Below are positions 23,471-43,925 of a stretch of 64,000 bases of DNA, piece after piece. The DNA comes from an uncultured Chthonomonadaceae bacterium (lineage in GTDB: Bacteria > Armatimonadota > Chthonomonadetes > Chthonomonadales > Chthonomonadaceae). The notes under the pieces are model-generated. The model saw only the letters and a program-made list of their open reading frames with translations. It did not search any database and was not told where the DNA came from. The stretch lies in contig CAWIEK010000034.1 in NCBI GenBank assembly GCA_963835065.1, positions 26,970 to 90,969 on the forward strand. The letters run 5' to 3'. Positions within the stretch are counted from its first letter, which is position 1. Each line of letters opens with the position of its first letter. The position numbers were made by a program, and so were the translations under genes.

Positions 23471-25441
23471 CTAAAACCTTGTTGCTGTCAGGTCGAAGGA
23501 GATACGGTGATTGAACGTGGAGTAGGTGAGCTGCAGTTCTCGCGCGCCGATGCGTCGTCCGAGGGTAAATTCCAGATCGCTGTAGCTTTGTCCCTCGAAG
23601 CGCTGAAGCGTGGCCGAGGTCAGGATGCGCCAATTGCTGTTCAGGCGATACGCGGCATCGGCCAGAACGCTGGTGTCGGCGGTATCCAAAAACGTGCTTC
23701 CGAAAACCGACATCTGAAATTTCTTGGTATTGGCGACGTTGTAGTTCAGGCTCACGCGGTGCTTGCCGCCCGTGTCCAGCGTACTCTGCGGGCGCGTCAG
23801 GTAATCATACGTCAGGTTCATGGAGCCGCCGCCCGCGAACGTGTGATCCAGCGACATGGTTGCCAGTCCAAGCAAGCCTGTGTTGGTCGGTCCGTTCCAT
23901 AAGTGCCCGAACGTCACGCTGTTGGTCAAGGTCGTGCGCGTGTTGATTTGCAGGGGGCGGGTGAACGCGCGCATCGTCACTTGCTCGGACGTATCGCTGA
24001 TCCCCGGCTCCGTGGTAAGATGGCTGCTCAGGCGGCTGGTGTTGAAACTGCCGCCGAACACGTACTGCACGTCTTTGGAGCCGAACAAGCGGTGCGGCAG
24101 AGTTTCCGCATAAGCATCGTTGTGGAAGGTGTTTTCGCCGTCGCTGGTAAAAGATTGGCCTTCCGTTAAATTCATGCCGAAGCGCATGGTTTGGGTTTGT
24201 TTGGACAGGCTCGTGTTGGCGTATACGCTATCGTGGTGCGGGAAATCCACGTACATCGCGCCTTGCAGATTGTTGTGGAAATCCTGGTTATGCGTCCACC
24301 GAAAGCCCCAATCGCTGCTCAACAAGCCCGTAAATCCATACGCCCCTTCCACGCGCTTGTCCCCCTCCGAGGAGTAGCCCTGAATCACGTCCACCGCCCA
24401 GCCGGGGTTGGTGGCAAAGTAGCTGCGTCCCACCTGCTGCCCGTGCCGCAGATACACAATGCCTGAACCGCGTGGAGAGAGATTGTAGTAGAACGGCAAT
24501 TCCAGTCCGAAACCGTTCGTGCCCACGCTGACGAAGTGATCCGAAAAGAGTTCCTCGGAGTTTATGCCAAGTTCATAGTAAGGCAGCGTGAGGATTTTGG
24601 CCTGATCCTGAAAGAAGTTTGGGGCGCGGAATTGCAGCCGGTCGCCGGGGAAGTAGGTGATGCTGCGCGCGGTAATAATCAATTTGACAGACAATTCGGC
24701 GTACTGGTAGCGCGATGAGGGCGTAGGAGTCGTATCGGCTTTGGTCAGCAGATGCGTACCCGTTACAACGATAGGCTGCGTTTTGCCGTCCAGTTCGCCT
24801 ATCGCCTGGCCTTCCTCGCTGGACAGGCTGTAGTGGAGTTTGGTCGCGTGAACGACATCCTTGCCGCGCTTCAGCGTGACGTTGCCGCTGGCGCGAATGT
24901 TGGCGGCATCGTTGCACTCCAACTGGATGCGGTCTGCGGTCAGGTCATAGTTGCGAAACGCCAGATGCGCTCCGCCGTCCTTGCCTTCCGCCTCAATGAT
25001 TTTGTCGTTGGCGCTATATGCCAGATACCCCTTCCCGGTAATTAAAATATAATTGTTGCCTTCAAACGTGGCTTCGGGATCATCGGTAAACTCGATGTGG
25101 ATGGTGTTGCTGGCGGCGGTTCCATTCACGAACGCGGTCACATCGGCGACGCCGGCAATCGGCGCGCTTGTCAGCGTGGTATGGGCGCTGCCGCCGAACA
25201 CGCGGACGCGGCTTTCGCGCAGCGTTCCCTTTGTGGTGGTAAACGTCACTTCGGCATTGCTGCCCAATCCGCCCTGCACCGTGACGAATAGTTCCGCCTG
25301 CTGCTTGCCATCGGCCAGCAGGGTGCTTTTGTTGGAATGAAGCGAAATCGTTGCTGCCGCGCAGGCTCGGATTGCAGAAAGGGAAACAAGCAAGGTTGTG
25401 AGCAGCAGCCAACACAGTGTCAGCACAAGTGGTTTGCGCAT
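23471..25441 (-). CDS. outer-membrane protein: Ig/invasin-like N-terminus, OstA-like jellyroll and beta-barrel (LptD-like architecture)
   Basis: Signal peptide; LLADGKQ..L.VTV..VTFTTTKG; LTADRI..RASGNV.L; LTLPYY; amphipathic strands; C-terminal Phe. Confidence 0.65.
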   Translation of the reverse strand: MRKPLVLTLCWLLLTTLLVSLSAIRACAAATISLHSNKSTLLADGKQQAELFVTVQGGLGSNAEVTFTTTKGTLRESRVRVFGGSAHTTLTSAPIAGVADVTAFVNGTAASNTIHIEFTDDPEATFEGNNYILITGKGYLAYSANDKIIEAEGKDGGAHLAFRNYDLTADRIQLECNDAANIRASGNVTLKRGKDVVHATKLHYSLSSEEGQAIGELDGKTQPIVVTGTHLLTKADTTPTPSSRYQYAELSVKLIITARSITYFPGDRLQFRAPNFFQDQAKILTLPYYELGINSEELFSDHFVSVGTNGFGLELPFYYNLSPRGSGIVYLRHGQQVGRSYFATNPGWAVDVIQGYSSEGDKRVEGAYGFTGLLSSDWGFRWTHNQDFHNNLQGAMYVDFPHHDSVYANTSLSKQTQTMRFGMNLTEGQSFTSDGENTFHNDAYAETLPHRLFGSKDVQYVFGGSFNTSRLSSHLTTEPGISDTSEQVTMRAFTRPLQINTRTTLTNSVTFGHLWNGPTNTGLLGLATMSLDHTFAGGGSMNLTYDYLTRPQSTLDTGGKHRVSLNYNVANTKKFQMSVFGSTFLDTADTSVLADAAYRLNSNWRILTSATLQRFEGQSYSDLEFTLGRRIGARELQLTYSTFNHRISFDLTATRF

Positions 25442-25568
25442 GGCGAGGCGGGTCTCCGAAGGGGGGTTGAAAGGAAAACTGTGAAATCGCTGGAGGAAAC
25501 AAAGCGCAGGCGAGGCGCCTTTGTTTTCCTCCAGATAAGGCGGCATTTCACTACCGGCCAACTTTAGT

Positions 25569-25699
25569 CAGTGGTTGAAAACCACTGTCTGAATAGCCTG
25601 CGGCTGAACGTCCTACGGACGTAAATGCCTGTTTAACAAGGTATCGCGTCCGTAGGACGCTCGGCGCAACGCCATTCAGACGGGTATTTTCAATGCCCG
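25569..25699. repeat. palindromic non-autonomous element with two terminal TTGAAAA-loop hairpins
   Basis: CAGTGGTTGAAAACCACTG and CGGGTATTTTCAATGCCCG at the ends; inner CGTCCTACGGACG/CGTCCGTAGGACG. Confidence 0.7.
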
Positions 25700-25729
25700 G
25701 CCAAAGGTGTCCGGTAGTAAAGGCGGCAT

Positions 25730-26640
25730 TTACTTGACGGTGGGAGCTGCCGCGCCTGCCGCCCCGCCTGCGCCGGCAGGAGCCGTTCCCGCAGCGGCAG
25801 CGCTCTTCGGAGTCATCGCTGATTTTAGTACGGATGTCATCAGCTTTTCCGTGAGAGTGCGCGCGGCTTCCGTCGCCGCTGTGGTATCGGTTGCGTTTTT
25901 CGCCGACTTCGGCGCCGTTTTCACCGTATCGGCGGCGGTGGAACTAACCGGAGTCGGCCCGGAATAATCAATCATCTGAACGCTGAGTACCATCGTAACG
26001 TTTTGTTCGTCGGCGTTGTACTCGTATGAGATCAGAGTGCTTATCAGGGCGGCGTCGTAGCCTGCCGCCGCCGTCAGCTTTTGCGCCTTATAGGTAACGG
26101 CGAACGGCGGGGCAACATCGGCGGGCGTCAGAGATTGCTCGGTCACGGAGCGGCGAATAGACGGCAGGGACGGCAGGAACGAAACCGGTCCAAATGTGCC
26201 TGTCGCCGACAAACGGCTCTTTTCCACATCCGTAATCACGTCCGACAATTGCAGCGCGGCGGCTCCCGTCGCGTCTACGGGGAACACCAGCACTGTACGC
26301 TTCGCCTCATACCCGTTTTTGCTGCCTTTTTTGCCGCTCTTTGCCGCCATTTTCGAGTTGCTTTTGGCACGTACTCTTGGATGGCTTTTTTGTTTTTGGT
26401 GGACTTCGGGTTTGTCTTCATGCCGGGGGGAGCGCCGTCTTTCTTAATGACGGTGTCAGGACGGTCGCCGGTTCGGGGCGTAGTGTCGCTGCTATCCTGC
26501 TGCGCGCGAACCGGGCCGGCAAGCGAACACAACAGCATTGCGCCCAGCATTGCGCCGCCCCACCGCGCAAATCGCTTGCGTTCTGACCGCGCGTTTACAG
26601 CCCGTCCTGTCGCTATGTCCAAAGAGTCTTGCTTGTTCAT
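25730..26640 (-). CDS. secreted protein with CsgG/TolB-N-like domain; apparent frameshift near 26360-26390
   Basis: Signal peptide (..GPVRA-QQ) in ORF 26275-26646 joins ORF 25730-26350 (RTVLVFPVD..AGYDAALI..VQMID) near an A-run. Confidence 0.6.
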
Positions 26641-26817
26641 GAACATGGGGGTCTACTCCATTGCCACAATCGAAATTGCCATAACCGAAAGCGTGAACGG
26701 GACTGCCATCCGGCAGCAGTCCCGTTCACAAAGGGAATACAGGAACCAAGCGACGGAGCGCTGATAGTTCGTAGCGCCTGCGTTGCTATCAACTACGAAC
26801 TATCAACTATCAACTGC

Positions 26818-29800
26818 CTAGCGGGTGATCACGAGGGGCTGGACTTTGCGTACGCGCTGTCCATCTTCGGTCTGCACTTGCAGTTCCACGTTGTACTGTC
26901 CGGCGGCAACCGCCGTGCCCTGCTGGTTTTTCAGATCCCACAGCGCGCTGCCGGTGGAAAGCCCGCCTTCCGCATCGCGGGTGCTGAGGTTGGTCAGCTT
27001 GCGCACCACTTGCCCGCGTCCGTTCAGGACGTTGATGGTCATCTGCGCCGCCGAGCGCGTCAGCGTGAAGTGGATGTTGGCGCTGCGCGTATCGCGGCCC
27101 GTCGTTCCGGCTGCGGTCAGCACATCCAGGGATGTGATCTGAACGCCGCTGTTGCGGCTGATGGGTTCGGCGATAACCTGAACCGTCTGCGTTCCGTCCT
27201 GTCCCACGCTCACGATGTGCGAGGCCGCGCTGCGCATATTCACCCGCTCGTTCGTCACCGGGTTCACCATCGTCAGACGATAGTTGCGCGGCACGTCGCG
27301 GGAGATGCTGTTCCAGCTAAGGGTCACGCTGTCGTTGGGCTTGCTGGAACGAACGGTCATGTCCCACGTTTTCACGCCCGCCGCCGGGGAGCGCAGGTCA
27401 TGCGCCAGTCGTGTACCTTCCGGCCACTCCTTGTGCGTGATTTCCAGCGTCAGCGTCTTGTTCATTTCCGGCGCTTTGCTGTACTTGTAGCCGTCCATGC
27501 CATCCGTGGCTTTGGGCGCGACACCGATGAAGTTATCGGGATCGTAGCCCGCCAAGCTCTTGGCGCTGATTTTCAAACGCCAGTTGTCCGAAGTGCCCCG
27601 GCCCAGTTTTTCCACGCTGGTCGAGCGCAGCTTGTTCTTAAAGCCCACGCCCAGAAGCGCGGCGCGGCCAACGGAAACGCCCGGAATGTCCACGCCCGGA
27701 TACAGGAATTGCAGGTTCGCCTTCTTCACGTATATCCAGTAACCCACATACGGCTGCATGGTGAAGCCGATGCTGTCCAGCAGCGTGTAGTGCCAGTTGG
27801 TCGGATCGGGATCGCTGGTATCGAACACGTACACGGCGGGCAGCACCAATTGGTTGGTGGGAACCGACGCATCGGCGACGCTCGAAACCGACAGGGTATC
27901 AGGATCGAAGATTTGTATTTCCGAAAAGTTGATCGGATACACATACGGGTCGCCGACCTGATTCCAGCCCCGGTTGTACACCATTTTATAAGCGTTTGAT
28001 GTGGGCTGAACCTGGTTGTTCAAGGGCGGATACGCGGTCGGGTCCAGCAGAATATGCGAGTCCTGCGTGATGCGGCTGCGTATCCAGTAGGCCATGCCCG
28101 GCACGAACGTGGAAACCGTCTGGTACTTGCCCGTCGTGGCATCGAACTGCGCCAGGTCGGGAGCCACGATGTTGGGGTCCTGGCCGGGGAACAAGGCAGC
28201 CGAAGGAGCCGTGCCGTGAAAGTCCAGCGGGAACGAGATCATCTGGTACAGGCCTTTGGTGTTGGCGTTGCCTTTCAGATCAATGGCGGGCGCGCTCGGC
28301 ACGATAATATCGCGCTGAACCACTTTGCCGCTTCCTACGTTTGCCGCCGCCGTCACCGTGAAGCGCAGCGTACCCGTTGCCGCGCCGTTGGACTGCACCA
28401 TCCAGCTGACGCCGCCTTCCTGGCCGGGCGCGATGCTGCCGATGGTCTTGGTGGCCGTTTCGCCCGTCGCCAATTGCAGGCCGGTGGGCAGGTCAAGGCT
28501 CAGGCTGACCGGGCTGATGCTGATGCCCGAACCCGGCTGCAAGTCCAGCAGGTTTGTCACGAACGCAGAGATCGTGAAGGTACTCGTCGGCGTACTTGCG
28601 CTGAACGGCAGGGCTGTAGGCGCGACAACGGCCAGGTTGATCGGCTGTCCCGCGTCAATGCTGCTGTCGCCCTGCCCGATATAGGTTGTAATCGGAATGT
28701 TCTGGCCGGGCGCGACGGACTGCTCATCATAGAAGGTGACAATCGCCGCATCCTGCGATCCCGGCGTGTCGAAACGGATTTTCGGGTCGGGAACAAAACC
28801 CCAGATACTATCGAAGTAACGTCCACTCGGTCCGGGAATGGATGTCGTGGTTCCCGTCGCGCCGGTCAGCGAAGAGGGCGGCGGATCGCTGCCTTCGAGC
28901 AGGCGTCCGCGTCCCAGCGCAAAGCGGGAGGGAACCGTCGGCTCATTGCCGGACGTGGATGTGGGCCGCAGGAAGCCTTCAATGCTGTGGATGGAAGCCG
29001 CGCTGTTGGTGCCCACCGCGGCCGTGCCCCGGCGCTGCACCTGCCAGGTTGTCGGCACATCGTTACCGCCGAGAACCACTTCGGTGCGCAGGTAAGGCCG
29101 GTTCGGAATGATGATCGGCGCGCTCAACGAGAGATCAACCGGGTCAAAGGCGAAGTCCTGCAAAAACGCCAGTCCTACCGTGTGGCTGCGGCCAATATCG
29201 TTATTAAGGATGTTGAACTGAAAGCGAATCTGGTCATGCACGAAGGAGGCCACAAGATCAATCTCGATTTTGGGATCAATCGTGGTGACAACCGTGCCGC
29301 CACCGCCGGTTCCACCGCCGCCTCCCGTACCGCCACCACCGGTTCCACCGCCTCCCGTGCCTGCCAGGGGCGCGTGGGGAAAGGTCTGCCAGCGCGCTAC
29401 CAGATGGCTGTTGACCAGGTAGGGCACGGTCAGCCAGGTGCCGCCCCTGGTGGTATCCGGCTGCCCGAACTCGTAATCGAACCCATCGTGGCCGCCGTTG
29501 ATACCGCCGTCCACGCGCACGAACACGCGCGTGCCATACAAGCGGATGCCTGTGGGCGGAATCAGCTTGCCGTAGTAAAAGAGGGTACTATTCGGGTCTG
29601 TCGAGTTGCCACTCGTGGTAAAGATGCCGATGGAGCCGCCGCAGTTCTTGCCCCGGCCCATAGATAAGAACAGATCGCCGTTCCCGATGGTGATAAACTC
29701 GTTATCGCCGATGACGTTGGCCGGCGTATTGGCAGGATGGTTCCAGATGCCCTCGCCCTGCGGCGGGAATACCTCTTGCGCGCCTGCTTTGGTCATCGCC

Positions 29801-29871
29801 AGGCCCATGAGCGCCATAACGCTCATTACAAACCCGGCTAGACGCTTGCTCTGTATGTGTTTCCACCCCAT
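26818..29871 (-). CDS. large secreted protein with shared C-terminal module ending in a FlgD-Ig-like tail
   Basis: Signal peptide; GWNQVGDPY, ATDGMD, WDLKNQQG..AGQY, ends PLVITR. Confidence 0.85.
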   Translation of the reverse strand: MGWKHIQSKRLAGFVMSVMALMGLAMTKAGAQEVFPPQGEGIWNHPANTPANVIGDNEFITIGNGDLFLSMGRGKNCGGSIGIFTTSGNSTDPNSTLFYYGKLIPPTGIRLYGTRVFVRVDGGINGGHDGFDYEFGQPDTTRGGTWLTVPYLVNSHLVARWQTFPHAPLAGTGGGGTGGGGTGGGGGTGGGGTVVTTIDPKIEIDLVASFVHDQIRFQFNILNNDIGRSHTVGLAFLQDFAFDPVDLSLSAPIIIPNRPYLRTEVVLGGNDVPTTWQVQRRGTAAVGTNSAASIHSIEGFLRPTSTSGNEPTVPSRFALGRGRLLEGSDPPPSSLTGATGTTTSIPGPSGRYFDSIWGFVPDPKIRFDTPGSQDAAIVTFYDEQSVAPGQNIPITTYIGQGDSSIDAGQPINLAVVAPTALPFSASTPTSTFTISAFVTNLLDLQPGSGISISPVSLSLDLPTGLQLATGETATKTIGSIAPGQEGGVSWMVQSNGAATGTLRFTVTAAANVGSGKVVQRDIIVPSAPAIDLKGNANTKGLYQMISFPLDFHGTAPSAALFPGQDPNIVAPDLAQFDATTGKYQTVSTFVPGMAYWIRSRITQDSHILLDPTAYPPLNNQVQPTSNAYKMVYNRGWNQVGDPYVYPINFSEIQIFDPDTLSVSSVADASVPTNQLVLPAVYVFDTSDPDPTNWHYTLLDSIGFTMQPYVGYWIYVKKANLQFLYPGVDIPGVSVGRAALLGVGFKNKLRSTSVEKLGRGTSDNWRLKISAKSLAGYDPDNFIGVAPKATDGMDGYKYSKAPEMNKTLTLEITHKEWPEGTRLAHDLRSPAAGVKTWDMTVRSSKPNDSVTLSWNSISRDVPRNYRLTMVNPVTNERVNMRSAASHIVSVGQDGTQTVQVIAEPISRNSGVQITSLDVLTAAGTTGRDTRSANIHFTLTRSAAQMTINVLNGRGQVVRKLTNLSTRDAEGGLSTGSALWDLKNQQGTAVAAGQYNVELQVQTEDGQRVRKVQPLVITR

Positions 29872-30148
29872 TGGAAGTCCTCCCTGGAGACGTATATTCT
29901 CTCAGCATAGCTGGGGGAACCACCATGCTTTCAAGGTTGATTGATAGGGGCCAGCCTGTCGCCGTCCCTCGTGACGTTCCCGTCACGGCGCGATTACAGC
30001 CGCGCAGGCTGTTCCGAATTGTTCCGGTCTTCCCCGGCAGGGCCGGCATGGGGTATGCCGGCCCTGCCCTCATTTTCAAGCAAAGGCGCGTGGCGGCTTG
30101 CGGTTCTTTTTACCAACCATCGGCCGCCAATCACCAATCACCAACCCC

Positions 30149-33100
30149 CTAGCGCCCCGTTACCGTCAGCGGATAATGGTACTGCGTTACCCGGCCTTCG
30201 GACGAAGTGGCGCGGAACCGGACGATGTAGGTTCCGGCAGGCAGGGCGTGGTTCTGGCTGTCGCGTCCATTCCAGACTCACATGGTTGTCGCCGCTCGTA
30301 GCCGCGCGTCCCGAATCCAACTGCGTCAGCAGGCGTCCGCCCGTGCCCAGGATAGATACGTCCACCTGCGCGTCATGCGAGACATTGTAGTCTATCTGGT
30401 ACGTGGACTGCCCTGTCGCTTTCGACGTGCCGCGCTGCGCGACAAACACGTTGTTGAAGACCACCGCGTCGCCGCTGTTACCCGGCTGCGCGGTAATGGT
30501 GAACTCGCGCGCCTGCGCTTTCGGTCCCGAATTGAACTGGAAAGCGGCGCGGCTGCGAATATCCACCACCTGTCCCGTTGTGTTGTCCTTCAGCGTGAAC
30601 TGGTAGTTACGCGGCAGGGAGTGGGCGTCGGGCCAGGACATGGTGACATCGGCATTGGGCTGATCCGTGCTGACGACCACATCCCAGGTTTTGGTTCCAC
30701 CCAGGGAGCGCAAGTCCTGCGCGTACAGGCCGTTTTTGGCGGAGCGCTGCAGGCCAAGCGAAACGTTGGAGCCGAACCGGGGCGGCTTGGGCGCTTTGGT
30801 CAGATCATCGCCATCGGTGGCCGTGGACGACATGCCGATGTAGTTGTGCGCGTCTACCATGTCTTTGGAGCGCGCCACCAGCCGCAAGGCCCAGCTTCCC
30901 GCGCCGCGCACGATGGGTTTGTTGGCGGCAATGGATGTCGCCCGCGTTTCCACGTTCTTCACGCCGAGCGTCTTTGCGCCCCGCGTGGTTCCGGCCTGTG
31001 TGGGCGTCATTACCAGCGTCAGCGCGTTGGGAGCGGGATTCACGCTTGTCGGGTCTTTGGGAATCACGTAAATCCAGTTGCCTTCCCAGGGATACAGCGT
31101 GCCGTTGGGAAGCGCCTGGAACTCGTAATCGTTGCCGATAAAGCGATAAATGAACGGCAGGATGAGCTTGCTTGTAGCGGCATCCGAGGCCGCGTACAGG
31201 GTTCCGTTCTGCGCCTGGATGGTCAGGTTTGCAAACGCAATCGGGAACGGGTACGCATCGCCGATCATATTCCAGCCTTCATGCAAAGGTACGCGGATCG
31301 TCTGCTGCGAGAACGTGCGTCCGTAGCTTTGAAAGGCGGAACCGGCAGTCAGATTGATGAAATATCCCAATCCCGCAGGCGTGGCATCCGTAACCGTGCT
31401 GGCAGGGTCGTTGGGATTGTCGCGCGGATCAATGGTCGGAATAGGTGTCGTCGAGACATCAGTCGGATGCAGGGAGGCCAGGGTGTTCAGCTTATCGCCC
31501 GCCCCGGAACCATTGATGGCGTACTGCCCCTGAACCGTTTGCGCGCCGCTGGAATTAACGACTGCCGAATTGATCCACCGGTACAGGATGGCGCTGTTGG
31601 TTCCCAGAATCGCTTTGATGTCGCGCTTGGGATTGGCGGGGTCCGGCGAGTCGCCGGGCGTTTCCACAACCGGGAAGGACACCATCGAAATGCCTGCCGG
31701 GAAGATATGCGGCCCCACGTTGTACACCAGGGATGCCTGGGCTGGAGCCAGGGTCGGGTCCTTAGGCGTCGAGGAGATGGATATTTGCTGCTGCTGCGAC
31801 GTGAGGGAGGGAGCCGCCGTGTACCGGAACGAGATGTTGAACTTGGAAAAATTGGGATCTGGCGACACGTCCTGAACGTAGAGGTTTGTCACCAGCTTCG
31901 TCGCGCCGGGATCTACCGCGCCGTTGGTTATCAAGGGCTGGGAGCCGGTGGGCGTTGTCAGCGTGACATTGATCAGGGGAGCGCCGGACGCGCTGCGCGC
32001 CGCATTGGTGGCCTGGAACCGGATCAAGGGGCGGAAGGTTTCTACGGGCAGGGGAGCGGCCTGCGAAGGCGCGGTGGACGAGTTTGTCGCCGGGTCAACC
32101 CCCTGGGGATCGGTAATCGTGACGACGTTGGAAACGCTCACCAGGGACGCATACGCATCCAGCAAGCCCACCCCGAACTTCTGATCGGGAACAGACGCCT
32201 GCCCGGTAATGGAATGGTTCGCATAGTTAATCAGCGCGTTCAGTCCGCGCGTATAGTCCACGCCGGGTACGCTGCGCAGCAATCCCGCAACTCCCACGAC
32301 GTGCGGCGCTGCAAACGACGTCCCCTGTATAAAGGAGTACTTATTCCCCAGGTCCAGACACAGGATACCATTGGGGTCGTTGTCGCTGCGTTGTTCGCCA
32401 CCGGGAGCGGCGATCAGGACATTAGGCGCGACAACGCCGTAACTGGAATAGTAGGCCAGCTTCGTTGGGTCGGGTCCAGTGGCGGAAACGGCAAGCACAT
32501 TCGGGAAGTTTGCCGGGAGGACGGTAGTATCCGTTGAGTCGTTGGCCCTGGAAGCAATCAGGATGACACCGGCATCGGATAGCTTTTTCAAAGCTACGTA
32601 CTGCGGGTCATTTAGATCAACGGCTGAATGATCTCCAAGATCCGCGCCATAACTCATGTTGAGGGCCACGACGTTGTATTTGGTCACATTCTTGGCGATG
32701 TCTGCGTAGGCGGCAAAGATCGCGGCAGAGTCCAGATTATTCGTGTTTTTTTTCTGAACCTTGTAGGCCAGACAGGGCATATAATTCCAGATGACTCCGG
32801 CGATTCCTTTGGAATTGTTGGTATGCGCCATGATGACGCCGCTTGTGGAAATGCCGTGCGACTCTTCCATTCCCGTTCCCGCGCTGATGTCGGCAGTTCC
32901 ATCGGCGAAGTTGTAGCTGCCTGGCGAGAAATTGGGCGCGTCTTCATGCGTGGGTTCGAAGCCACTATCTATATCCGCTACGGTGACACTGAGCGAGCCT
33001 TTTTGCAGTGTCCAGGCCTGGGGCATGTTAATCAATTTAAGCCCGTACTGTTCACCGGTTTTGTAGCGCGGGTCGTTCGGCTCGGTGGTATTGCTCGTCG

Positions 33101-33482
33101 CCTGATGAACGACGTACTGAGGGCTGGCCTCGACGAACCGGACAGTCGTTTCCAATTTTAGTTGTGCCACAGCCGCCGCGACGCTGGGCTGGTCTAAATG
33201 GTTGTTGTCCAGCGTGACCATGTACAGGTTTTCCAGCGCCAGAGGGACAACACTGGCCGCCTGCACGGAATTCGCCAGCCGCGTGGCTTCGGCGGCGGGA
33301 GTTCCGGGCTTGAGGAACAGCAGAATTCTCCCCGGCTCATAGCGGGGGCCGCCAGGCTGGATGGCGCGATGTGGGCCGCGCAAGGGTTTTTTGGCCTGTC
33401 CTGACGCGAGGTTTGCGGCTGCGGCAAGCGCGCCGGTGACAAGCAGCGTCTGACTCAGGACGGATCTGCGAAAATGAAGCAT
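30149..33482 (-). CDS. S8 (subtilisin-like) serine peptidase with the shared C-terminal module; one extra base near 30279
   Basis: Triad DIDSG / SHG / GTSFAAPHV; corrected tail DNHVVWNGRDSQNHALPAGTY..YPLTVTGR, stop at 30149. Confidence 0.88.
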
Positions 33483-33755
33483 TATGAAATAACTCCTTGT
33501 CCGGGCGGCCTGCCGGAGCAGCCGCTGTGCAGACTGTGTCAGCGCGGAGGGAGCGACACCAGGGATGTTGCAAGTTGGCTTACAAATGAAGCGACAGAAA
33601 AAGAACTCAGAAATGAACACATTGGGGGGAAGCTCATCGTCGCCATACGGCAGGGCTGCAAGTTGACGATGGATATGTTTATTGTACCCTACAAGCGGCG
33701 GCAATGAGAGCAGGATTTCAAATTTTGCTCGTATTTTGTGTTTTCCGCCGGGCTA

Positions 33756-34047
33756 CCTCACCCCAACCCCTCTCCTGGACGCTCGTTCCTCGCTAGGAGA
33801 GGGGCTATTTTGTGGCAATCCTCTCCGGTTCGCTCGTTCCTCGCTAGGAGAGGGGCTATTTAAATGAAATCCTCTCCTGGTACACCGTCAATGTAGAACA
33901 GTTAGGTAGGGGCGCTGCTTGCTGCGCCCTCTGTGAGCGGTTGCTGCGCCCTCCTTTGAGGAGGGTTCAGCAAGCAGAACCCCTACAACGTACCCTACCC
34001 ATCCTACCTTGACAGAGTACTAGCCGCTCGTTCCTCGCCAGGAGAGA
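33756..34047. repeat. nested REP/MITE-like cluster
   Basis: Three CGCTCGTTCCTCGCYAGGAGAG units; the third is interrupted by an element with 20-bp imperfect TIRs (33877-34023) that holds two inverted GTAG-REPs (33906-33931, 33961-33986). Confidence 0.8.
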
Positions 34048-34079
34048 GACTTTGAAGCGCAGGATTGGCCTGATTTGGC

Positions 34080-36386
34080 TTAGTTGCGGCTGCGTCCCCG
34101 TCCCGTCAGGATGTCCTGCGGGGTGGAAACGTGTGTGCCGTTGATGGACCGGCGCGACCCCGGCAGGGGCAGAACGGCGCGCGAAGCCGCATTATTCCGG
34201 TTCAGGAGGCCCGCCACTTTGGACGTGCTGCCGGGATTACCGGGGGGCAGCGGAACCGGCTGGAACGGAATAATCTGGCTGTACACGAACCGGAAGGTGC
34301 GGTCATTATCGGAAGCGTTCAGGCTCAGGACATTGATCGGGCCGGGACTGTCTTCGTCATGCCGCGCGCCGACGCGCAGGTACAGCGTCGGCAATTGCGG
34401 CGTGGTCGTGCTGTTGGTGTTGCCGACGAAGTTGGAAAACGTCTGGTTTGACAGCAGTTCCGTCGCCTGGGTCAGGTTGATAGGCGTAGTCAGGTTTTGC
34501 GCTACGCCGTCCTGCGTGGCGGCGGTGGAAATCAACTGCTGGCGGAAAACCGTTTTCGGGTTGGAAAACGTTCGATCCGTAGACACTTCGATCTGGAACA
34601 GGTCTGCGCCCTGGCGACTGCCGAAGGAGGGGGCAAACGTGCGCAGGTCAACGTTGGTGGCGCCTGTGATCGGCGTGGAAATCAGAACCGGATTGATGGG
34701 TGTGGCAAGGCCGGTGCGAATCGGATCGGTTTCGATGCACTGGCTGCTGCCCTGGTTGCCCGTGCCGTTGCCGCCGCCGTTGCCGCCGCCGTTGCCGCCG
34801 CCGCCAACGCCACCGCCACCGCCCACGCTGCCGCCGCCGCCGCCGCCCGTGCCAACGGAGCCGCCTGCGCCGCCGCCACCGAGGCCGCCTGTGCCACCGC
34901 CGCCCTGACCGCCACCGGAATCCTGCGTCACGATCTGGCGCAGAATAATGGCGGTGATTTCATAACGGTAGCTGCGTCCGGGCGTAAAGCCCAGGTCAAT
35001 GGTGGTCGTTCCCGAACCACAGCCGCCCTGCGTGTTGGTGCCGCCACCGCCGCCGCCGTTGGTGTTACCGCCAGAAGAAACGCCGCCCGTGTTGTTGCCG
35101 CCGTTGCTTTGCGCAACCAGGAAGCTTCCCGTCGCGAACGTGAAATTGGGCGAGGGGCGATCAATGAACTCTCGAGTGCTCGCCGCAGATACGCCGACCG
35201 GAACGGCGGTATTGATGGCGGTAGTGGTTCCACCGCCGTTGCCGCCGCCGTTGTTGCTGCCGCTGCCGGGCGAGGTGAACGGAAAGTCCGGGTCGCGGTA
35301 AATCTTGTATTGCAGAACGCCCGCCTGCCCGAAGATGTTGTCGTTGTAGCGCACGCGCACAGCCGGGGCCGTGCTTTCCGTCGTGGCTTCCGCGGTGGCG
35401 TTGGTTAGCGAACCCTGGCCGCCCTTGATAGCAACCGCAATCAGTACGCCCAATCCCAGTACGGCCAGCGTTTTGCCCACCGTGCTGAAGTTGACGCGGG
35501 TGCTGCGCTCGTTGCTTTGATGGAAATTCTGTAGGTCGAGCGCGAAAGCGGGCCGGTACAGCGCGCGGGCGATGTTTTCCGGGCTGATGCCGTTGTTCAG
35601 CGTGGCGTCGCACTCGCAGTCGGTCGCATATGCGCGGGCCACCTTGATGATGCCCTTGCTGATGGTGGAGCCGTTGGGCTGATAGCCGAGTACCAGCAGT
35701 TCATCGCCCACGTGCAGGCCGTCGCGCGTTCCCCGGTTGATAATCACGGTTTCCACGTTGATGTTGAGAACCGTTGCCGTCACCAGTTGGCGCTGCACCA
35801 TCTGCCGCACCGCATCCAAACCGGCGTCGCCGATGGCGCGCGTCACGGCTTCTTCCACCGCTTCCCCGGCGCGCGGCGTTACCGCCTGGCTTACGATGGC
35901 GCCGTTGAGGGCATATTCCTTTTCGGAAATAGCGTCTACGATGGTCGTGTCAATGGCAACCGAGGTCACGCGCCCGGCTTTGTTGGTCGCGACGTTCACT
36001 CTGCCGGTCACAACGCCTTCCGCGTTCAGCGCCTTTGCCAGCCGAGTCAGGTCGGCGCGGGAAAAGTTCGCGGGCTGGTTCGGGTTGCTTGGTACGCGAA
36101 TACCGATCTGCCGGGCTTCCGTAATCAGTTCCTTTTGCGGAATCGGGTTGAAGCGGCCCTGTCCCGAAGCGGTCAGCTCATTGAATACGGCATCCCGCGC
36201 CTGAGTGGCGAGAGCATCCGTCTTTTTGGTGCGGATATTCGTGAAGTCCGCCACAATCACGGTGATAGCCTGCTGCGCCTGCGCCTGCGCCGGGCGTCGG
36301 CCCAGCATCAGCATCGGTATCAGCAATGCCACCGTCAGCAGCCACGAAATGCTTCGGGCCGCCCAACTTTTACGCAGTGAATTCAC
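34080..36386 (-). CDS. secreted protein with CsgG/FlgT-like N-terminal region, internal hydrophobic helix and Gly-rich beta domain
   Basis: GTG start after GGAGGAG; signal peptide; VIVADF..LNAEGVVTG; VIINRGTRDGLHVGDEL. Confidence 0.72.
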   Translation of the reverse strand: MNSLRKSWAARSISWLLTVALLIPMLMLGRRPAQAQAQQAITVIVADFTNIRTKKTDALATQARDAVFNELTASGQGRFNPIPQKELITEARQIGIRVPSNPNQPANFSRADLTRLAKALNAEGVVTGRVNVATNKAGRVTSVAIDTTIVDAISEKEYALNGAIVSQAVTPRAGEAVEEAVTRAIGDAGLDAVRQMVQRQLVTATVLNINVETVIINRGTRDGLHVGDELLVLGYQPNGSTISKGIIKVARAYATDCECDATLNNGISPENIARALYRPAFALDLQNFHQSNERSTRVNFSTVGKTLAVLGLGVLIAVAIKGGQGSLTNATAEATTESTAPAVRVRYNDNIFGQAGVLQYKIYRDPDFPFTSPGSGSNNGGGNGGGTTTAINTAVPVGVSAASTREFIDRPSPNFTFATGSFLVAQSNGGNNTGGVSSGGNTNGGGGGGTNTQGGCGSGTTTIDLGFTPGRSYRYEITAIILRQIVTQDSGGGQGGGGTGGLGGGGAGGSVGTGGGGGGSVGGGGGVGGGGNGGGNGGGNGTGNQGSSQCIETDPIRTGLATPINPVLISTPITGATNVDLRTFAPSFGSRQGADLFQIEVSTDRTFSNPKTVFRQQLISTAATQDGVAQNLTTPINLTQATELLSNQTFSNFVGNTNSTTTPQLPTLYLRVGARHDEDSPGPINVLSLNASDNDRTFRFVYSQIIPFQPVPLPPGNPGSTSKVAGLLNRNNAASRAVLPLPGSRRSINGTHVSTPQDILTGRGRSRN

Positions 36387-36557
36387 TGTATCGTCTCCTC
36401 CTGGTGTCGGGAGTGAGCCGCAGGCCGGCGCGTGGAAAACGGGAACCAAAAGGCGCCTTTCCACATTGTTTCCACTTGCCGGCTGCTCTCAACTACGCGC
36501 TTGTTTGCCTACGTACCTGCATCTCTATCAACTATCAACTATCAACTGATCACCAAT

Positions 36558-39500
36558 CTACCGGGTAATCAGGATGGTTCCCACCTGCCGGACGACATGG
36601 CCGTCCTCATCCGCGGCGCGCACTTCTACCGTGTAGACGTTGGCCGGAACCGCCGCGCCCCCGTCCGTTTTCAGGTCCCATGTCGCCTGGTTGTCCCCGG
36701 CGGCGCGGCTTCCTGTTGCGGTCACATTGCGGATCGCGCGGCCATTTTGCGTGATCTTGATCGCTACGGCAGCCGATTTCGTCAGATGGTAGGAGATGCT
36801 TACCGGAGCGCCCGTCGCCCGTCCATTTCCAGGCTGCACAACGGTCAGGTTGGTCAGACTGAGCGGGTTGCGGGTGGCCCGCTGCACATCCAGACGGTAG
36901 TGCTTGGCGATCACGTTCTGGCTTGCCGGGATCACGAAGCTGGAACGGTTGCGCAGGCTGAGGGTCTGCTTGCTGTCCAGATCGGTGATTTGCATATCCT
37001 CATGGCGCGAGATCGTGGTGATGTTGGGCCACGAAACCGTTACCGGCGCGTTCAGCACGTTGGACGTGACGGTGAACTCCCACGAGGTGGCGCTGGCGGA
37101 ACGCACATCCATGCTGTAAGCGGCGGATTTGCTGCCCCAGTCCTTATGCTCGAAGGCGATCTGCACGTTCTGCTTGGTGGCGACAGGCGGCACTTCCAGC
37201 TTATAGGTGTCGTAACCGTCCGTTGCCTTGCGGGACACGCCCAGATAAGCGTTGCTGGCCGTTTTGTCGTCCACTTTGGCATGCAATTGCAGTTTCCAGC
37301 CGTCGCCCGTCACATTGGAAGCGACGGTTGCCCGGCCTTTGCTGCCAACCGCGCGGCTTTGCGACGCGCCGGGCGTGACGATCAAGGTCACAGGCCGGAA
37401 CGCGCGCAGCCAGTAGCCCCGGAACGGATCGAGCGTGAACACGATCTCGTAGGAGCCATGCTCATAGGTGAACAGCGCGCCGCCCAGGGCCGGGTTGCCG
37501 CCGCCCTGCGCGTCGGGCACGTTGACCAGGGTTCCGTTCGCCTCCTGAATCTGGAGTTTCGAGAAGTCTACGGATGTGGTGAACGGCATGCCGATCAGGT
37601 TCCAGCCGTTTTGCAGCGGAATGGAGAACGGCAGGTAGTTGCCAAGCGCGTCTTTCGGAGCCGTCCCGTAGTTCGGGTTGGTCAGCGCGAGAATGGTCGC
37701 CGTATTGGTTTCCTGCAGGAAGTAGCCCACTCCCAGGTGGAAGGTATCCGCCGGGGGCGTCGGGGTATACACATACTTCTGCTGGCTGGCGTCCCAGGTG
37801 ATAAACGCGAACGTGTTGTTGATGTCCGCGCCCGGAATGCTGAACAGGTCCGTGATGCTTACGCCGAGATACTGGAAGGGCGAGCTGACCAGCGTGAGAT
37901 CGGAATTGAACGAAGCCAGCGGATCCAATATGAAGTTGACGTTGGGCGTTTCCGCGCCCGTCGTGACCGGCTCCGTCAGCGTATTCGGGTTCGGCTTGGG
38001 CGTGTACCCGGCTTTGGTGGCTGTCACCTGAACCGTCGTACCTGCCGGGATGTTGCCGACCTTATAGTTGTAGGAGTATTGGGTGCTGGTGGTTCCGGGC
38101 AGAATTTCCGTCTGCACGGCTCCCGTCGTGGCCGTGATCGTCTGTCCCGCCGACGTGGTGATGGTGATCGTCGCGCCCGGAACCGGAATGGAATTGGGCG
38201 GCGAAGTCGTTACCAGGCCGGAGATCGTGCCGGGCGGCAGGGGCACGAGCGAGAAGTTCACCGTCGCGGTCTGCTTCGACACAATGGTCACGGCAACCGC
38301 AGCGGACGACGCATAGCCGGGGGCGCTGGCAACCAACTGGTAGCTGCCGGGATTCAGGCTGATGGAGTACATGCCGTTGGCGTCGGTCGTGCCGGTCGGC
38401 GGGGTGGTTCCCCCCGTGACCGTGATGGTCGCGCCGGGTATGACCGTAGGCGTTGCCGCCCCGCTGACAAACACGGTTCCGACGAGAGTTCCCGGCGGCT
38501 GCGTCAATTGGAAGTTCTGGCCGGTCACGTTCTGGCCGGACGCTACCTTGACGCCGGTGATAACAGGCGGGACGCTGCCGCTGAACCCAAGCGCGGCCAC
38601 GTTGGTCACGCTCAGGTCATACGTGCCATTGCCGGGCACGTTCTGGATGAGGTAGTTGCCCTGCGCGTCGGAAGGAAGCGACGTAAACACGGCTCCCGTT
38701 GATTCATCCACCGCCTGCACAGTTGCGCCGGGAACCGGCAAGTTGGTTCCGAACGTGGTGACTTTGCCGGCGATAGTGCCGGGCTGCGCCTGGATCAGGG
38801 TGAAGTCGTTGCGTCCCTCATAGCCGCCATGGAACACACTTCCGGTGGCGTGTTGGGTGATGAAGCCGGATTGCAGCGCGTCCATGCCGTAAATGCCGTC
38901 GGCATCCAGGCCTTCAATGATAAACGAGCCATCGCTTCTGGTTTTGGCCGTAAAGACATTGGCGGCGCCAATTATGCCCGTCACGGGATCGGGACGGTAA
39001 GCGCGCACAATGGCTCCCGGAATCGGCTGCAAGGGGCCACCCGTCGAGTTGCGGGTGCGTACCTGTCCGACAAGCCGCCCGGTGCGCAAAAAGTCCAGCA
39101 CGTTGTGGGTCAGTTCCACGCGGCGGTTCTTGAAAACGCACGTGGTTCCGGCAATGTAGTACTCGGGATTGATGGCTTCCCAGCCGAAGGGCGAGAAGAC
39201 CACTTTGCCCGATTGCGCGTTGCGGTACCACATGATGGCCGCGTTGTTGGTTCCCGTTCCGGCGTTGTACAGCGCATCCACGCCGTACTGCCCGGCGTAG
39301 ATTTTGTTGGCAATGTCAACGTTGCCTCCACCCGTCGGCGGCGTGAGCGTTGGCGGGGTGAAGATCACCTGGTCGGGCGAGCCGATGGCGGTGATGCCTC
39401 CCTCCGCGCCCGTGTTCGGGCAGCCGTAGAGCCGGTTGGTGGGCGCAATGGTCGTGTTGCTCAGATAAACGGGCGGCGTGTTGAAGGGCGGATCGTCGCC

Positions 39501-42500
39501 TCCCGCCGGAGTGGGATAGGCATGCAGCACATCGTACCAGGTTTCAAACCCGATGGGATGGACGCCGCGCCCGAACGCATCCGGGTTTTTCTTCAGACTG
39601 TCATTGACGTAGTCGCCGTTGAAGCCGATGGGTGGCCCGATGGCGTCATCGCCCGTTGTCGCATCGAACTGCGCGCGCAGCGTGTTGTTCAGGAAGGCGC
39701 GGCCCGATCCGCCCCCGCCACTGGGATCGTTGCCCAGGGTCAGGCCGAAGGCAATGTCCTGTCCATTGACGAACAAGCGTCCGCCGCGATTGACAAAGGC
39801 CGTCAGGTTCGTCTGCGTGTCGCTGTCCAGCAGCGTGCCCGGCCCGACGTACAGGTCGCCCAGATACGGCGAGTGCCAGATTACGCATTTGTCCGCAACC
39901 AGCACCTGCCGCGCCGGGAAGGGACCAAGCGGATCCGCCGGCTGCGTGATGGTGCGCGGGCCGTAGGTATTGAGAACCGATACCGGCACGGGGCCGCGAC
40001 ACTGGACGCGCCAGATGTCGTATATCCCCGTAATGGGCGCGGTATTGGTTATTCCTCCTCCGCCTCCGCCGGTCAAGCCATCGAAGTAGGAGTTCACGCC
40101 GAGGGGAGTCAGGAAGTTGAGGATCGTGTAAACCGTCGTCCCTTGGATGGCGATTTGCGGGAACAACTGCGAACTGAATTCGGTTGTCCACGACTCGGTG
40201 GGATTGCCTTCGTAGCTCAGGCCGACGGAGTTGGTCAGGCCATTCTGGAAATCACCCGTTCCAAAGCGCGAACTGAGGAATTTCTGGCCCGTGTCATAGT
40301 CGCTGATGTAGAGACACTGTCCCTGGCCGATGAAGGGACGGGTGGTGAAGCCCCATACGTTGTCGTATATTTTCCAGTTGCTTTGCGTCGCGCCGGTTCG
40401 GTCGAACGGATACACAGCGTTATCATACAGGATCACGTCAATGACCATGTCGCTGGGCAAAGGTTGCCGGGAGTATTCCATTCGGCCTGGAACGTGCCCG
40501 TGCCCGTGCCGTCGTCCTGCAGGGGCAGCCAGTAGCCGACGTCGCCATCCGGGAACTGTCCCGCGTTGGGCGTGATGCTGGCGTCATCCGGCGGGTTCAG
40601 ACTGCCGCTGTAAGCGTTGAAGTCTTCTACGTTGGGCGTATAGCGGTTGAAGCCCGGCCAGGTGTTGGGAATGCCGCCGCCCACCGAAGCGGGAGCGTTC
40701 GCGCCGCCGTTAGGACGGAACTTCGCCGTACTCGATATCCGAGGCCTTGATCGCCTGCTGGTCGAATTCATACGGCGTATTGATGGCGAACAGCGTGGTA
40801 TCCAGTTGTCCCAGGCCCAGGGACGAGCCGTTGTAGAAGATTTTGTGTTCCTGGCCGTCCGAGGACTGGGGCGCGCTGTCGGGGCATTTGATTTGCAGGT
40901 ACGCATATTTGATGCCGCTCTGGTAGTCTACGGCGCGAATTTTGAAGCGAACGCGCGACCCGGCAGCCACAAAGCGGTTCAGCAGGGGCTGGCCGGGAGC
41001 GTTCGCGAGTTCGACGTGGACGATCTCGTTGGAGTTCTCGTCGTACTTGAGCAGCGTGGGCGCGTCAATGTCGAGGATGGCCGCCGCCCACAGATTGTAG
41101 TTATTGCCCCGGTCGCTTTGAAAGGCGATGCGCGAGGTGTTGATGAACTGCGGGAAGGTGGGAAAGTCCTCGCTGGTCGTGTTGCCGATGTCGAACTGCG
41201 ACAGGCCGGGTTTGTCCAGTGCGTCTACGGTGCTTTGCGGCTCCAGCGTTTGCAGCTTGTGCGCGCCCGTATACTGCGAGGAACCGGCGGCATAGGAGAC
41301 TTCACCCACGGGAACCGTGACAACGTTCGCGTTGCGCACATCGGGGCCGATGGTCGCATTCATATAATAGATGTCAGTGGCGCCCGGAATTCCGCCGGGG
41401 CCGGCGGGACTGATGGTGTCGGGCTGGCCGTTGGATTGGGAATCCGTGCGGGTGCTGGCGAAGCCAAGCAGTATCTGGCCCTGGCCGGTGGGGTTGCCGT
41501 TCGCGTCCTGGCCGGGCGGAACGCCGCCGATACGCGGCAGGCCTGTGCTGGGATCAATATCCAGCCGCGTGGTGCTCCAGGCCGGGTTGCGGTTGGTGGC
41601 ATGGGGCACGTTGGGATCGTTGGGATTGGCCGTGCCGGGCAGCACAAAGTTGGTGATGCGCTTGGGCGCGGGAATCAGCGGGTTGGGCTGGAAGACGAAA
41701 ATCTCGTCATGGGAGCCGGCGAAAGCATTGGGCGGGTTGACAGACGTGGCAACCACCGGCGCATTGCTGTTGCCGTTCGCAAACGTCAGGGCATTGGTGG
41801 TGTACGCGATGACAGTTGCGCCCTGAGGATTGGTGACGGCAGGCGACCAGGCCGGCGAGTAATCGTTGGACACGCCTGACGTGTACTGCGTGATGTTACC
41901 CTGCGCGACATTGACGGTAAAGATGTGGTAGTTGGTGTCGCCCTGCAGTTTACCGGCAAACGCGATGTCCGTGCCGCCCGGAGAAAACGAGGGATGGCGC
42001 ACGTCCGTGAAGGTAAAGAGGTTGTTGAGGTTGGTTAACTGCTGCGGCGTCTGTCCGCTGTTCAAATCCATGAAGAACAGGTTGAAACCGGTGGTTTGCG
42101 TTTGCAGCCCCGGCGAATTGGACGGGGCGTTGAGCGCGGCGAGATTGGTGATCTGGCCGCCCGACACATAGCAGACGCGGTTGTTCTGCGAGGACACGTT
42201 GGGTTCGATCTTGTTATCGGTTCCCGACGTGATCTGCTCGACGGAAGAGCCGTCCGTAATCAGGCGATAAATGTTGAACGGAGCGCCGCCTGCCGTGTTG
42301 GTCGCGCTTTGACGGTCGCTGTCGAAGTAGATGTAGGTTTCGTCGCTGGACCAGAACGGATGCTCATCTACAGACGGCGCGAACTGAAGGGAAAAATTGG
42401 CCGAAGGAGTCGCTTTTGTCAGCAGAATGGTCTGCCGGGGAACGCCCTGATCCCCCGCGGCGCGGCTTCCTTTGGGATGCCAGGTTCGGGCCATGCGCGT

Positions 42501-42728
42501 GAGTTTGTCGCTGAGATGGCGGCGCGTGACCCAGGTGGGCAGTTTGGCAATCTTGCCGATGGCGACGTGTTTGGTGATGCGTCCGCCGGCTTTGTGAACG
42601 CTGGTGGGCAAAACGCGGCGCGGCGCGGGACCGCGTTTGCTTTGCGCGATAACCAGCGACGCCAGCGCCACCAGGGCGATGGTCACAAGCAGGTGCAGGA
42701 CAACATTGATTTTGTTGGCTCTGTTCAA
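36558..42728 (-). CDS. ~2050-aa secreted protein: TolB/PD40-like propeller, carboxypeptidase-regulatory-like repeats, shared C-terminal module; frameshifts near 40733 and 40459
   Basis: ORFs 40710-42728, 40433-40906 and 36558-40481 join; PFWSSD, PSFSPGG, PAWSP; repeated GT(I/L).G.V..P(V/I)PGAT; ends TILITR. Confidence 0.8.
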
Positions 42729-43306
42729 GGCGAGTCCTACCTCCTCATAAGATCTGACTTAGATCACAAAATGGCACGCTTGAAGGGGAAAGCCTGCGCA
42801 GCCGGAGCGGGGAGATTTCCGGCGTTGGATGGAATTAGTGAAAACGTTCTACGGGCTACGGCCAAACGGAATTGTTGGCAATGAGCGTTGGGTGGAGCGG
42901 ACGCCCGTGCAGGGAGGACCCTTAAATCGAACTTATCCGCCATTGAACTTCGCTGCTCGCGTGGGCAGGGAAAAAGTTCGGCGCATTCTGGGGGTTTCAA
43001 TCCTCGCCCGACTCCTTACAAGAACTCATAAGTTCACTTTTGACAGCAGAAACTTATGAGCAAAAGCGAGAAGGCCGGACGCAACTAACGGGAAGCCGTT
43101 GAACGTCCTGAGAAGACCGTTACGCGGTTATGTTGTCACCGTTGCCGGTTGGTGGGTTTACCGGTTTGGAATGACATCCCTGACAGATTTAGATGATAGC
43201 ACACTGACAAAGAGAAAGCAAGCGTTTTTTCAGCAATCGCGGCTGCTTTCATGGAAAATTGCGAAAAGTTCCCAAACATTCTGCGCCCAGGCCGGAAATT
43301 AGGGAA

Positions 43307-43925
43307 TCACGGCTGATTTTCGGCTTGGGCCGTCCACTGCCGCCACAGATTTTCTATGGTTCGCCGCAGCTCTTCGAGTGACCCTTCATTGCGTATAACC
43401 ACATCCGCCTGCGCTTCTTTGAGTTCTAAAGGCATTTGCGCGGCGATACGCTGTTGGGCTTCGGCTTCCGTCAGACCATTGCGCGCGGCAAGCCGAGTCA
43501 CCTGCACCGTTTGTGACGCGCTGACCACAACGATTCGTTCAAACCAATTTTGCATTTTTGCTTCAAACAACAGGGGAACTTCCACGGCAACGATCAAGGA
43601 GGGAGAAAAGTCGCGCCGACATGCTTCAATCTGCGAGCGCAGCAGCCGCAAAATAGGGGGATGGGTGATTTGTTCCAGTTGACGGCGGGCTGAGTCACTC
43701 GCAAACACAACGGACGCCAGGTACGCGCGGTCAAGGCTGCCGTCCGACTCTCAGCGCGTCCGCGCCAAACACGCGGGCAATTTCGCGCATGGTCGGCAAC
43801 ACGGGATCAAGAACCGCCCGCGCCGCCTCATCCGCGCTGAACGTAACCGCGCCCTGCTCACGCAGCAACGCCGTCACCAGACTTTTGCCCGTACTCAGGC
43901 CACCGGTAATGCCAATTACAAGCAT
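43307..43925 (-). CDS. coaE: dephospho-CoA kinase; apparent frameshift near 43745
   Basis: IGITGGLSTGKS..SAD in ORF 43731-43931; LEQITHP..EVPLLFE..ADVVIRN in ORF 43307-43708. Confidence 0.9.

Follow-up and report, generated by a model that had tools for sequence, protein, structure and literature searches.

A candidate export signal and a SprA-related barrel in Armatimonadota, and a conserved gene cluster that carries the signal beside an LptD-like gene

Two large outer-membrane barrels serve here as the closest described points of comparison: SprA of type IX secretion (T9SS), with 36 strands, and LptD, the lipopolysaccharide (LPS) transporter, with 26. The accessible text of two studies confines type IX secretion to Bacteroidota (PMC10202324, PMC11611037); the former also calls proteins with its C-terminal domains (CTDs) restricted to that phylum, and according to the latter, type B CTDs sometimes bear the label of the FlgD_ig superfamily. 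We analysed a window (the whole stretch of DNA under study, 64,000 nucleotides) from an uncultured Chthonomonadaceae bacterium (assembly GCA_963835065.1, contig CAWIEK010000034.1, positions 26,970 to 90,969), in which positions 23471-42728 hold six minus-strand genes in a row, three of them encoding large secreted proteins with a common C-terminal tail. The bacterium belongs to Armatimonadota, a phylum of soil and hot-spring bacteria. We propose, from sequence, that the terminal domain of this tail is an export signal for a minimal SprA-like route through a second barrel encoded on another contig, a reading to which we give a probability of roughly 0.55. No description of such a system was found in the literature searched, outside which lay most subscription papers and all supplements (those of PMC11535203 may cover secretion systems).

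A tail of about 300 residues had been noted in the preliminary description of this locus; it is real and longer than claimed, covering some 400 residues, with 27-29% BLASTP identity over 377-484 C-terminal amino acids (E 1e-32 to 2e-33). It is carried by a beta-rich protein of 1017 amino acids (26818..29871, minus strand like all genes of the cluster), an S8 subtilase (30149..33482; PF00082, E 1.6e-25) and a giant protein of about 2050 amino acids (36558..42728) with a TolB-type propeller and carboxypeptidase-regulatory immunoglobulin (Ig) repeats. The motifs GWN.(I/V)G, ATDG.D and D.RS are present, and the proteins end in ITR, TGR and ITR, respectively. In the structure model of the tail (predicted local distance difference test, pLDDT, 84.8), three sub-domains can be distinguished: a GWN domain, an ATDG domain and a terminal Ig domain of about 95 residues. 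These make up the last 400 amino acids of the giant protein (36561..37760), with the terminal domain at 36561-36866; in the beta-rich protein this domain, the candidate sorting signal, lies at 26821..27138. It matches PF13860 (FlgD Ig-like) with E-values from 2e-7 (in the beta-rich protein) to 1e-13, and in the PDB it matches FlgD Ig (E 5e-11), with weak similarity (E 0.3) also to the ends of PorU and PorZ. The GWN and ATDG domains had no Pfam match, and Foldseek with the tail model returned only generic Ig/FN3 matches (template-modelling score, TM, about 0.2) and no S-layer structure.

A count of tails by profile, as the preliminary description had proposed, gave only one further protein in this genome (G000): a fourth full-tail protein of 1181 codons (G000:C49:649410-652952; L031:9411-12953) whose N-terminal part has no Pfam match. 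Across the phylum the tail profile matches 189/201 genomes; the tail alignment (A1) excludes one truncated tail (G023). Of the 150 library proteins that score best, 128 have the full tail (with the ATDG domain), and 121 of these end in Arg. The invariant Arg of the terminal-domain alignment (A8) carries no evidential weight, as the proteins in A8 were chosen for ending in Arg. Unrelated cargoes of other families end in the terminal domain, whether or not the GWN and ATDG domains precede it: S8 proteases, TolB, WD40 and LVIVD propellers, beta-helices, a C39-like peptidase and Ig-repeat proteins of 2500-4600 amino acids, with giants reaching 4649. All 25 candidates scored in one genome (G171) match the domain, and five chosen genomes have 40, 67, 15, 13 and 0 FlgD_ig matches. 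The domain also appears in other settings. A 264-residue protein (L076:10975-11766, G132) consists of a signal peptide, an ATDG domain and the terminal domain alone; G189 (L057-L062) has a large family of secreted proteins of about 1000-1400 residues with an internal FlgD-Ig-like domain; and some proteins (P0001-P0006 and others) have 8-15 tandem FlgD-Ig-like repeats.

The second barrel of this genome, outside the window, is a frame of 1092 codons with a terminal Phe (G000:C53:391574-394849; L116:9575-12850). Its family comprises predicted outer-membrane proteins of about 830-1000 mature residues, also with a terminal Phe, whose named homologues are hypothetical proteins; Atlas holds unnamed look-alikes in Rifleibacteriota and Pseudomonadota. 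Partial matches of about 100 residues to the SprA model TIGR04189 occur in 44/81 genomes and fall in this family; the match has E 1.2e-8 for G000, and in G050 three stretches are covered, with E 2.4e-21. The count for the second barrel is 40 amphipathic 10-mers in 834 residues, the length of the G044 orthologue (L136), some of them in two inserted domains, vs 21 in the ~22-strand barrel encoded in the window, which suggests, as a crude estimate, some 30-36 strands in the 830-1000 residues of the family. Immediately upstream of the second barrel, seven loci (L119, L120, L123, L125, L127, L131, L132) have DUF5693 and csaB (pyruvyl transferase) genes; in four, lptC/lptA-like genes follow it. Two more barrel families, of about 600-730 and 900-1180 residues, carry the same small SprA-like domain (G000:C33, L117:9271-11094; L124, L126, L129, L135), and one of them follows an anti-sigma-factor gene in three loci.

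To compare the distributions of terminal domain and second barrel, we used cut-offs of 1e-12 and 1e-45, scoring at most 25 and 4 candidates per genome, respectively. Of 201 genomes, 125 have both and 62 neither, while 13 have the domain only and one (G049) the barrel only; second-barrel scores have a bimodal distribution that leaves the range from 1.1e-49 to 2.8e-21 empty. Five of the 13 domain-only genomes were examined, four of which have internal Ig domains and the fifth (G219, one contig) a tail without a terminal Arg; outside these five, the 13 include six further genomes of family f6. A quick tree built from 25 orthologues of the window barrel shows seven changes of the barrel/domain state, at least five of them forced by well-supported branches, and a single split therefore cannot explain the co-occurrence. 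The state also differs within families (G199 vs G044, G219 vs G161): the tail genes of G199 end before the terminal domain, and G044, of the same family, has both the terminal domain and the second barrel. A full-tail gene lies at most two genes from the second barrel in 13/35 loci (5/15 and 8/20), and a partial tail does so in five more.

The tail had been proposed to be a sorting or docking signal for a T9SS-analogous or S-layer-like machine partly encoded in the window. The idea of a T9SS-like sorting or docking signal is supported because the terminal domain sits on unrelated cargoes and co-occurs with a SprA-related barrel, but the likely translocon is on another contig. In the route that we propose, cargo would cross the inner membrane by its signal peptide (Sec) and then fold in the periplasm. 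The terminal Ig domain, with its final beta-strand ending in Arg, would be recognised, and the folded cargo would pass through, or be assembled on, the second barrel. The GWN and ATDG domains may be separable accessory modules for surface assembly or anchoring, since lineages that lack the second barrel still keep GWN, and in some cargoes the Ig domain is the only one of the three. More tentatively, Armatimonadota may have a reduced and perhaps ancestral version of type IX secretion, in which a mini-SprA pore of about 35 strands exports folded proteins tagged with an Arg-ended Ig domain, with neither a PorK-N motor nor PorV. If true, the SprA-CTD pair would occur on either side of the split between Terrabacteria and Gracilicutes and would predate the Bacteroidota machine, with a bearing on the origin of the T9SS; a compact SprA-related pore with its matching signal would make a simple model of folded-cargo selection by a giant barrel, and the surface proteome of an understudied phylum could be predicted.

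Several points weigh against this proposal. None of 81 genomes passes the TIGR04189 cut-off, and the second-barrel matches are stretches of about 100 residues far below it; PF14349 (SprA) was not matched in G000, in a search where no control gave signal. Sequence searches of the PDB with second barrels missed SprA, giving weak OmpG matches or none, and an Atlas score of 0.85 to a SprA cluster is a lead only and was not reproduced with a homologue. The strand count, as said, is crude. The barrel threshold of 1e-45 was set after the bimodal scores were known, and positive genomes were the source of both profiles. In G049 the barrel occurs with no terminal-domain match, and G020 and G091, both fragmented assemblies, have the domain without a full barrel. 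Ten of the 13 loci with an adjacent full-tail gene were chosen since their coordinates hinted at adjacency, and four Chthonomonadales loci, including that of G000, have no tail gene beside the second barrel. Six terminal-domain proteins of other families lack the final Arg, and tail proteins are few, with only four in G000 and one in f11 genomes. FlgD-Ig-like domains are also common inside proteins: 9 of 12 examined in G189 are internal, and we rejected the idea that every FlgD_ig match is a signal.

The barrel encoded in the window (23471..25441, likely start ATG 25441) is probably LptD. As first described, it combines an Ig domain, a jellyroll and a barrel ending in Phe; Pfam and a structure model (pLDDT 81.5, pTM 0.45) show a signal peptide, a Big_1/invasin-like Ig domain, a beta-jellyroll and about 22 barrel strands. 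All of the top 15 Foldseek matches of the model are LptD (E 4.5e-16 to 8.6e-12, TM about 0.35), the best spanning 668 columns with a high root-mean-square deviation (E 4.5e-16, TM 0.34). The Pfam LptD models PF04453 and PF19838 gave no match. The barrel is single copy in G000, where no other LptD was found, and its profile matches 194/201 phylum genomes, although some weak matches may be to the Ig domain alone. LpxC is present in 79/81 genomes. The barrel keeps strong scores in three families without the terminal domain (f8, f23, f29) and stays together with the gene of the 'ring' protein (see below) in f26, a family without any tail. It is this fold match, single copy, distribution, presence of LpxC and persistence where the terminal domain is lost that make LptD the probable identity, and the analysis points to an Armatimonadota LptD overlooked by Pfam. 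One study of 'atypical diderm' genomes found no lptD or lptE, and its accessible text does not mention Armatimonadota (PMC8871954). G000 itself has lptC/A/B/F/G-like genes; lpxC and lpxB were not found in it, probably owing to an assembly gap, though lpxC is in 4/4 family members. A phylum without LPS, as G000 alone had suggested, is overturned by the LpxC count. A diderm envelope with a 55-nm periplasm is described in one Armatimonadota member (PMC11535203, accessible text). In G000, a 703-residue LptA-like protein (L055:5701-7812, G000:C57; weak match, E 0.0016) lies between lptC-like and lptB genes; it is far longer than usual and may suit a wide periplasm.

The link between terminal domain and second barrel need not mean export. 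The domain could dock on the barrel without translocation, the tail proteins being periplasmic or anchored and accessory to an outer-membrane scaffold associated with the LPS translocon. This would account for the co-occurrence equally well; in addition, core tail genes are kept beside LptD phylum-wide, DUF5693-csaB and lptC/lptA-like genes often flank the second barrel, and TolB-type propellers are usually periplasmic. We regard docking alone as rather unlikely, as the lineage-specific spread of the domain to proteases, beta-helices and adhesin-like giants of up to 4649 residues suits surface display better than a fixed scaffold, and in the accessible text of PMC10202324 the export signal of the T9SS belongs to this fold class. 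The machine first suggested, in which the tail proteins would be exported or assembled by the barrel and CsgG-like rings of the window itself, with an LptD-like protein turned to protein export, now seems improbable. That barrel looks like the only LptD of a genome with the Lpt genes, in a phylum with LpxC, and its occurrence does not follow that of the terminal domain; its scores are strong in families that lack the domain, the ring gene persists in the tail-less f26, and a pore of about 22 strands would be small for folded cargo of 100-200 kDa.

Two further explanations place the function of the tail elsewhere. It could be a module that self-assembles into an S-layer or lattice and is exported along an established pathway (e.g. 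type II secretion), with the second barrel as its anchor or unrelated to it. The csaB gene often precedes the second barrel, neighbouring proteins weakly match an anammox S-layer model over their Ig repeats, and the GWN domain persists without the terminal domain; yet the tail model matches no S-layer structure, and the accessible text on cryo-electron tomography of Fervidibacter gives two membranes and peptidoglycan with no mention of a lattice (PMC11535203), so that we think an S-layer hardly probable. Finally, the co-occurrence might merely reflect shared ancestry or profile bias, with tail and second barrel functionally unlinked: the genomes are not independent, the profiles stem from positive genomes, and diverged second-barrel paralogues exist in negative ones. 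We consider such a coincidence very improbable given the forced changes on the tree, the two within-family contrasts and the gene adjacency in several families. Export by way of the second barrel remains our preferred reading.

The two remaining genes of the cluster encode the ring protein (34080..36386) and a small secreted protein (25730..26646). In the former, a CsgG/LpoB/TolB_N-type domain and an FlgT_C/TsaP-like beta domain are followed by a conserved hydrophobic helix (35427..35483), a possible membrane helix of 19 residues (Kyte-Doolittle mean 2.1) that is hydrophobic across the 23-sequence alignment, and after it by a Gly/Thr-rich FN3-like part; the latter has a single CsgG/LptE/LpoB-type domain. 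Both were at first called CsgG/TolB-N/FlgT-like, and the domain is indeed shared (HHalign 97%; Pfam), but LptE and LpoB fit about as well as CsgG. Over 23 orthologues of the ring protein, Pfam gave LpoB 8, CsgG 7, TolB_N 4, LptE 3 and FlgT_C 2 times, and its PDB matches include TsaP (E 4e-7) and LpoB (E 3e-4). Over 17 orthologues of the small protein, LptE was matched four times and CsgG three (best E about 1e-3). Judging by sequence, the small protein is a candidate LptE-like partner of the window barrel.

The six consecutive genes are there as first described, with the small gene starting at 26646 and four frameshifts in three genes: two in the giant gene (~40736, ~40459) and one each in the S8 gene (~30277) and the small gene (~26350). 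Signal peptides were judged by eye. The frameshifts are most likely assembly errors, because the G001 orthologues are single open frames and the extra bases at 30277, 40459 and 40736 are absent from the contigs of close relatives in public runs (~26350 is outside the pieces compared). Real pseudogenes were rejected since the genes are intact in relatives, and the giant protein is one open frame of 1866-2196 codons in 10/10 genomes of the order. Upstream of the cluster, coaE (window 43300-43900) is apparently frameshifted too, which fits an indel-prone assembly. Short intergenic stretches at ~25600, ~26800, ~33800 and ~36520 have many contigs and high depth in public runs, suggesting small repeated elements between the genes.

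Synteny, on which the first idea depended, is conserved. In all of the 10 order genomes sampled (those with long contigs, out of 38 with a match), the order of giant TolB-type protein, ring protein, tail proteins and barrel is kept. The S8 gene and the small gene are each present in nine, the latter directly upstream of the barrel, and a fourth tail protein, of about 2500 residues, occurs in two genomes. In other families (20 Armatimonadota loci, 19 readable; that of G089 was left out), the cluster is kept in 15/19 loci and the barrel stands alone in 4/19. Among the 15 kept clusters, the tail is complete in nine and ends after its first domain in three, while three have no tail gene. The small gene was not found in four f26 genomes or in G161, in a search without a positive control. 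We infer that the window holds an ancient envelope operon of LptD, two proteins of LptE/CsgG fold and three core cargoes.

How far, then, does this locus resemble known systems? Like LptD and LptDE, the window barrel has a beta-jellyroll followed by a barrel with terminal Phe, is single copy, leads its Foldseek matches with LptD and has an LptE-fold neighbour, in a phylum with LPS and Lpt genes. It differs in its ~22 strands, its extra N-terminal Big_1 domain, the lack of a Pfam LptD match, a neighbour without an evident lipobox (by eye) and a gene unlinked to lptABCFG. The ring protein shares its alpha/beta domain and its FlgT_C/TsaP-like beta domain with CsgG, FlgT, TsaP and LpoB, but not its internal hydrophobic helix and Gly-rich FN3-like part. 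The terminal domain of the tail matches the FlgD Ig-like domain (PF13860), though here it ends large secreted proteins, after GWN and ATDG domains.

The comparison with type IX secretion is the closest for the tail itself. The search for SprA, PorV and PorK-N that the preliminary description had called for was answered in part, by the partially SprA-like barrel. Over 41 genomes, no PorV passed the cut-off (two weak partial matches; the control itself scored only below it), and neither GldM nor GldN was found, in searches where no control gave signal and GldL and GldK were not searched for; without good positive controls, distant homologues may escape. The type A and B CTD models (TIGR04183, TIGR04131) had no match in the window proteins (NCBIfam, Pfam, E 0.05). 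The host phylum is Terrabacterial rather than Bacteroidota, the second barrel has about 830-1000 residues vs the 2319 positions of the SprA model, the terminal residue is Arg where type A CTDs have a Lys motif, and many genomes have few cargoes. On the other hand, unrelated large cargoes of Armatimonadota carry a signal peptide as well as a C-terminal Ig-fold domain of about 95 residues, with weak matches to the ends of PorU and PorZ, and the distribution of a large barrel with partial SprA similarity tracks this domain. Lacking a full SprA and CTDs of type A or B by the tests made, the Armatimonadota system does not appear to be a member of the T9SS; it seems to resemble it in the type of signal and in its probable pore.
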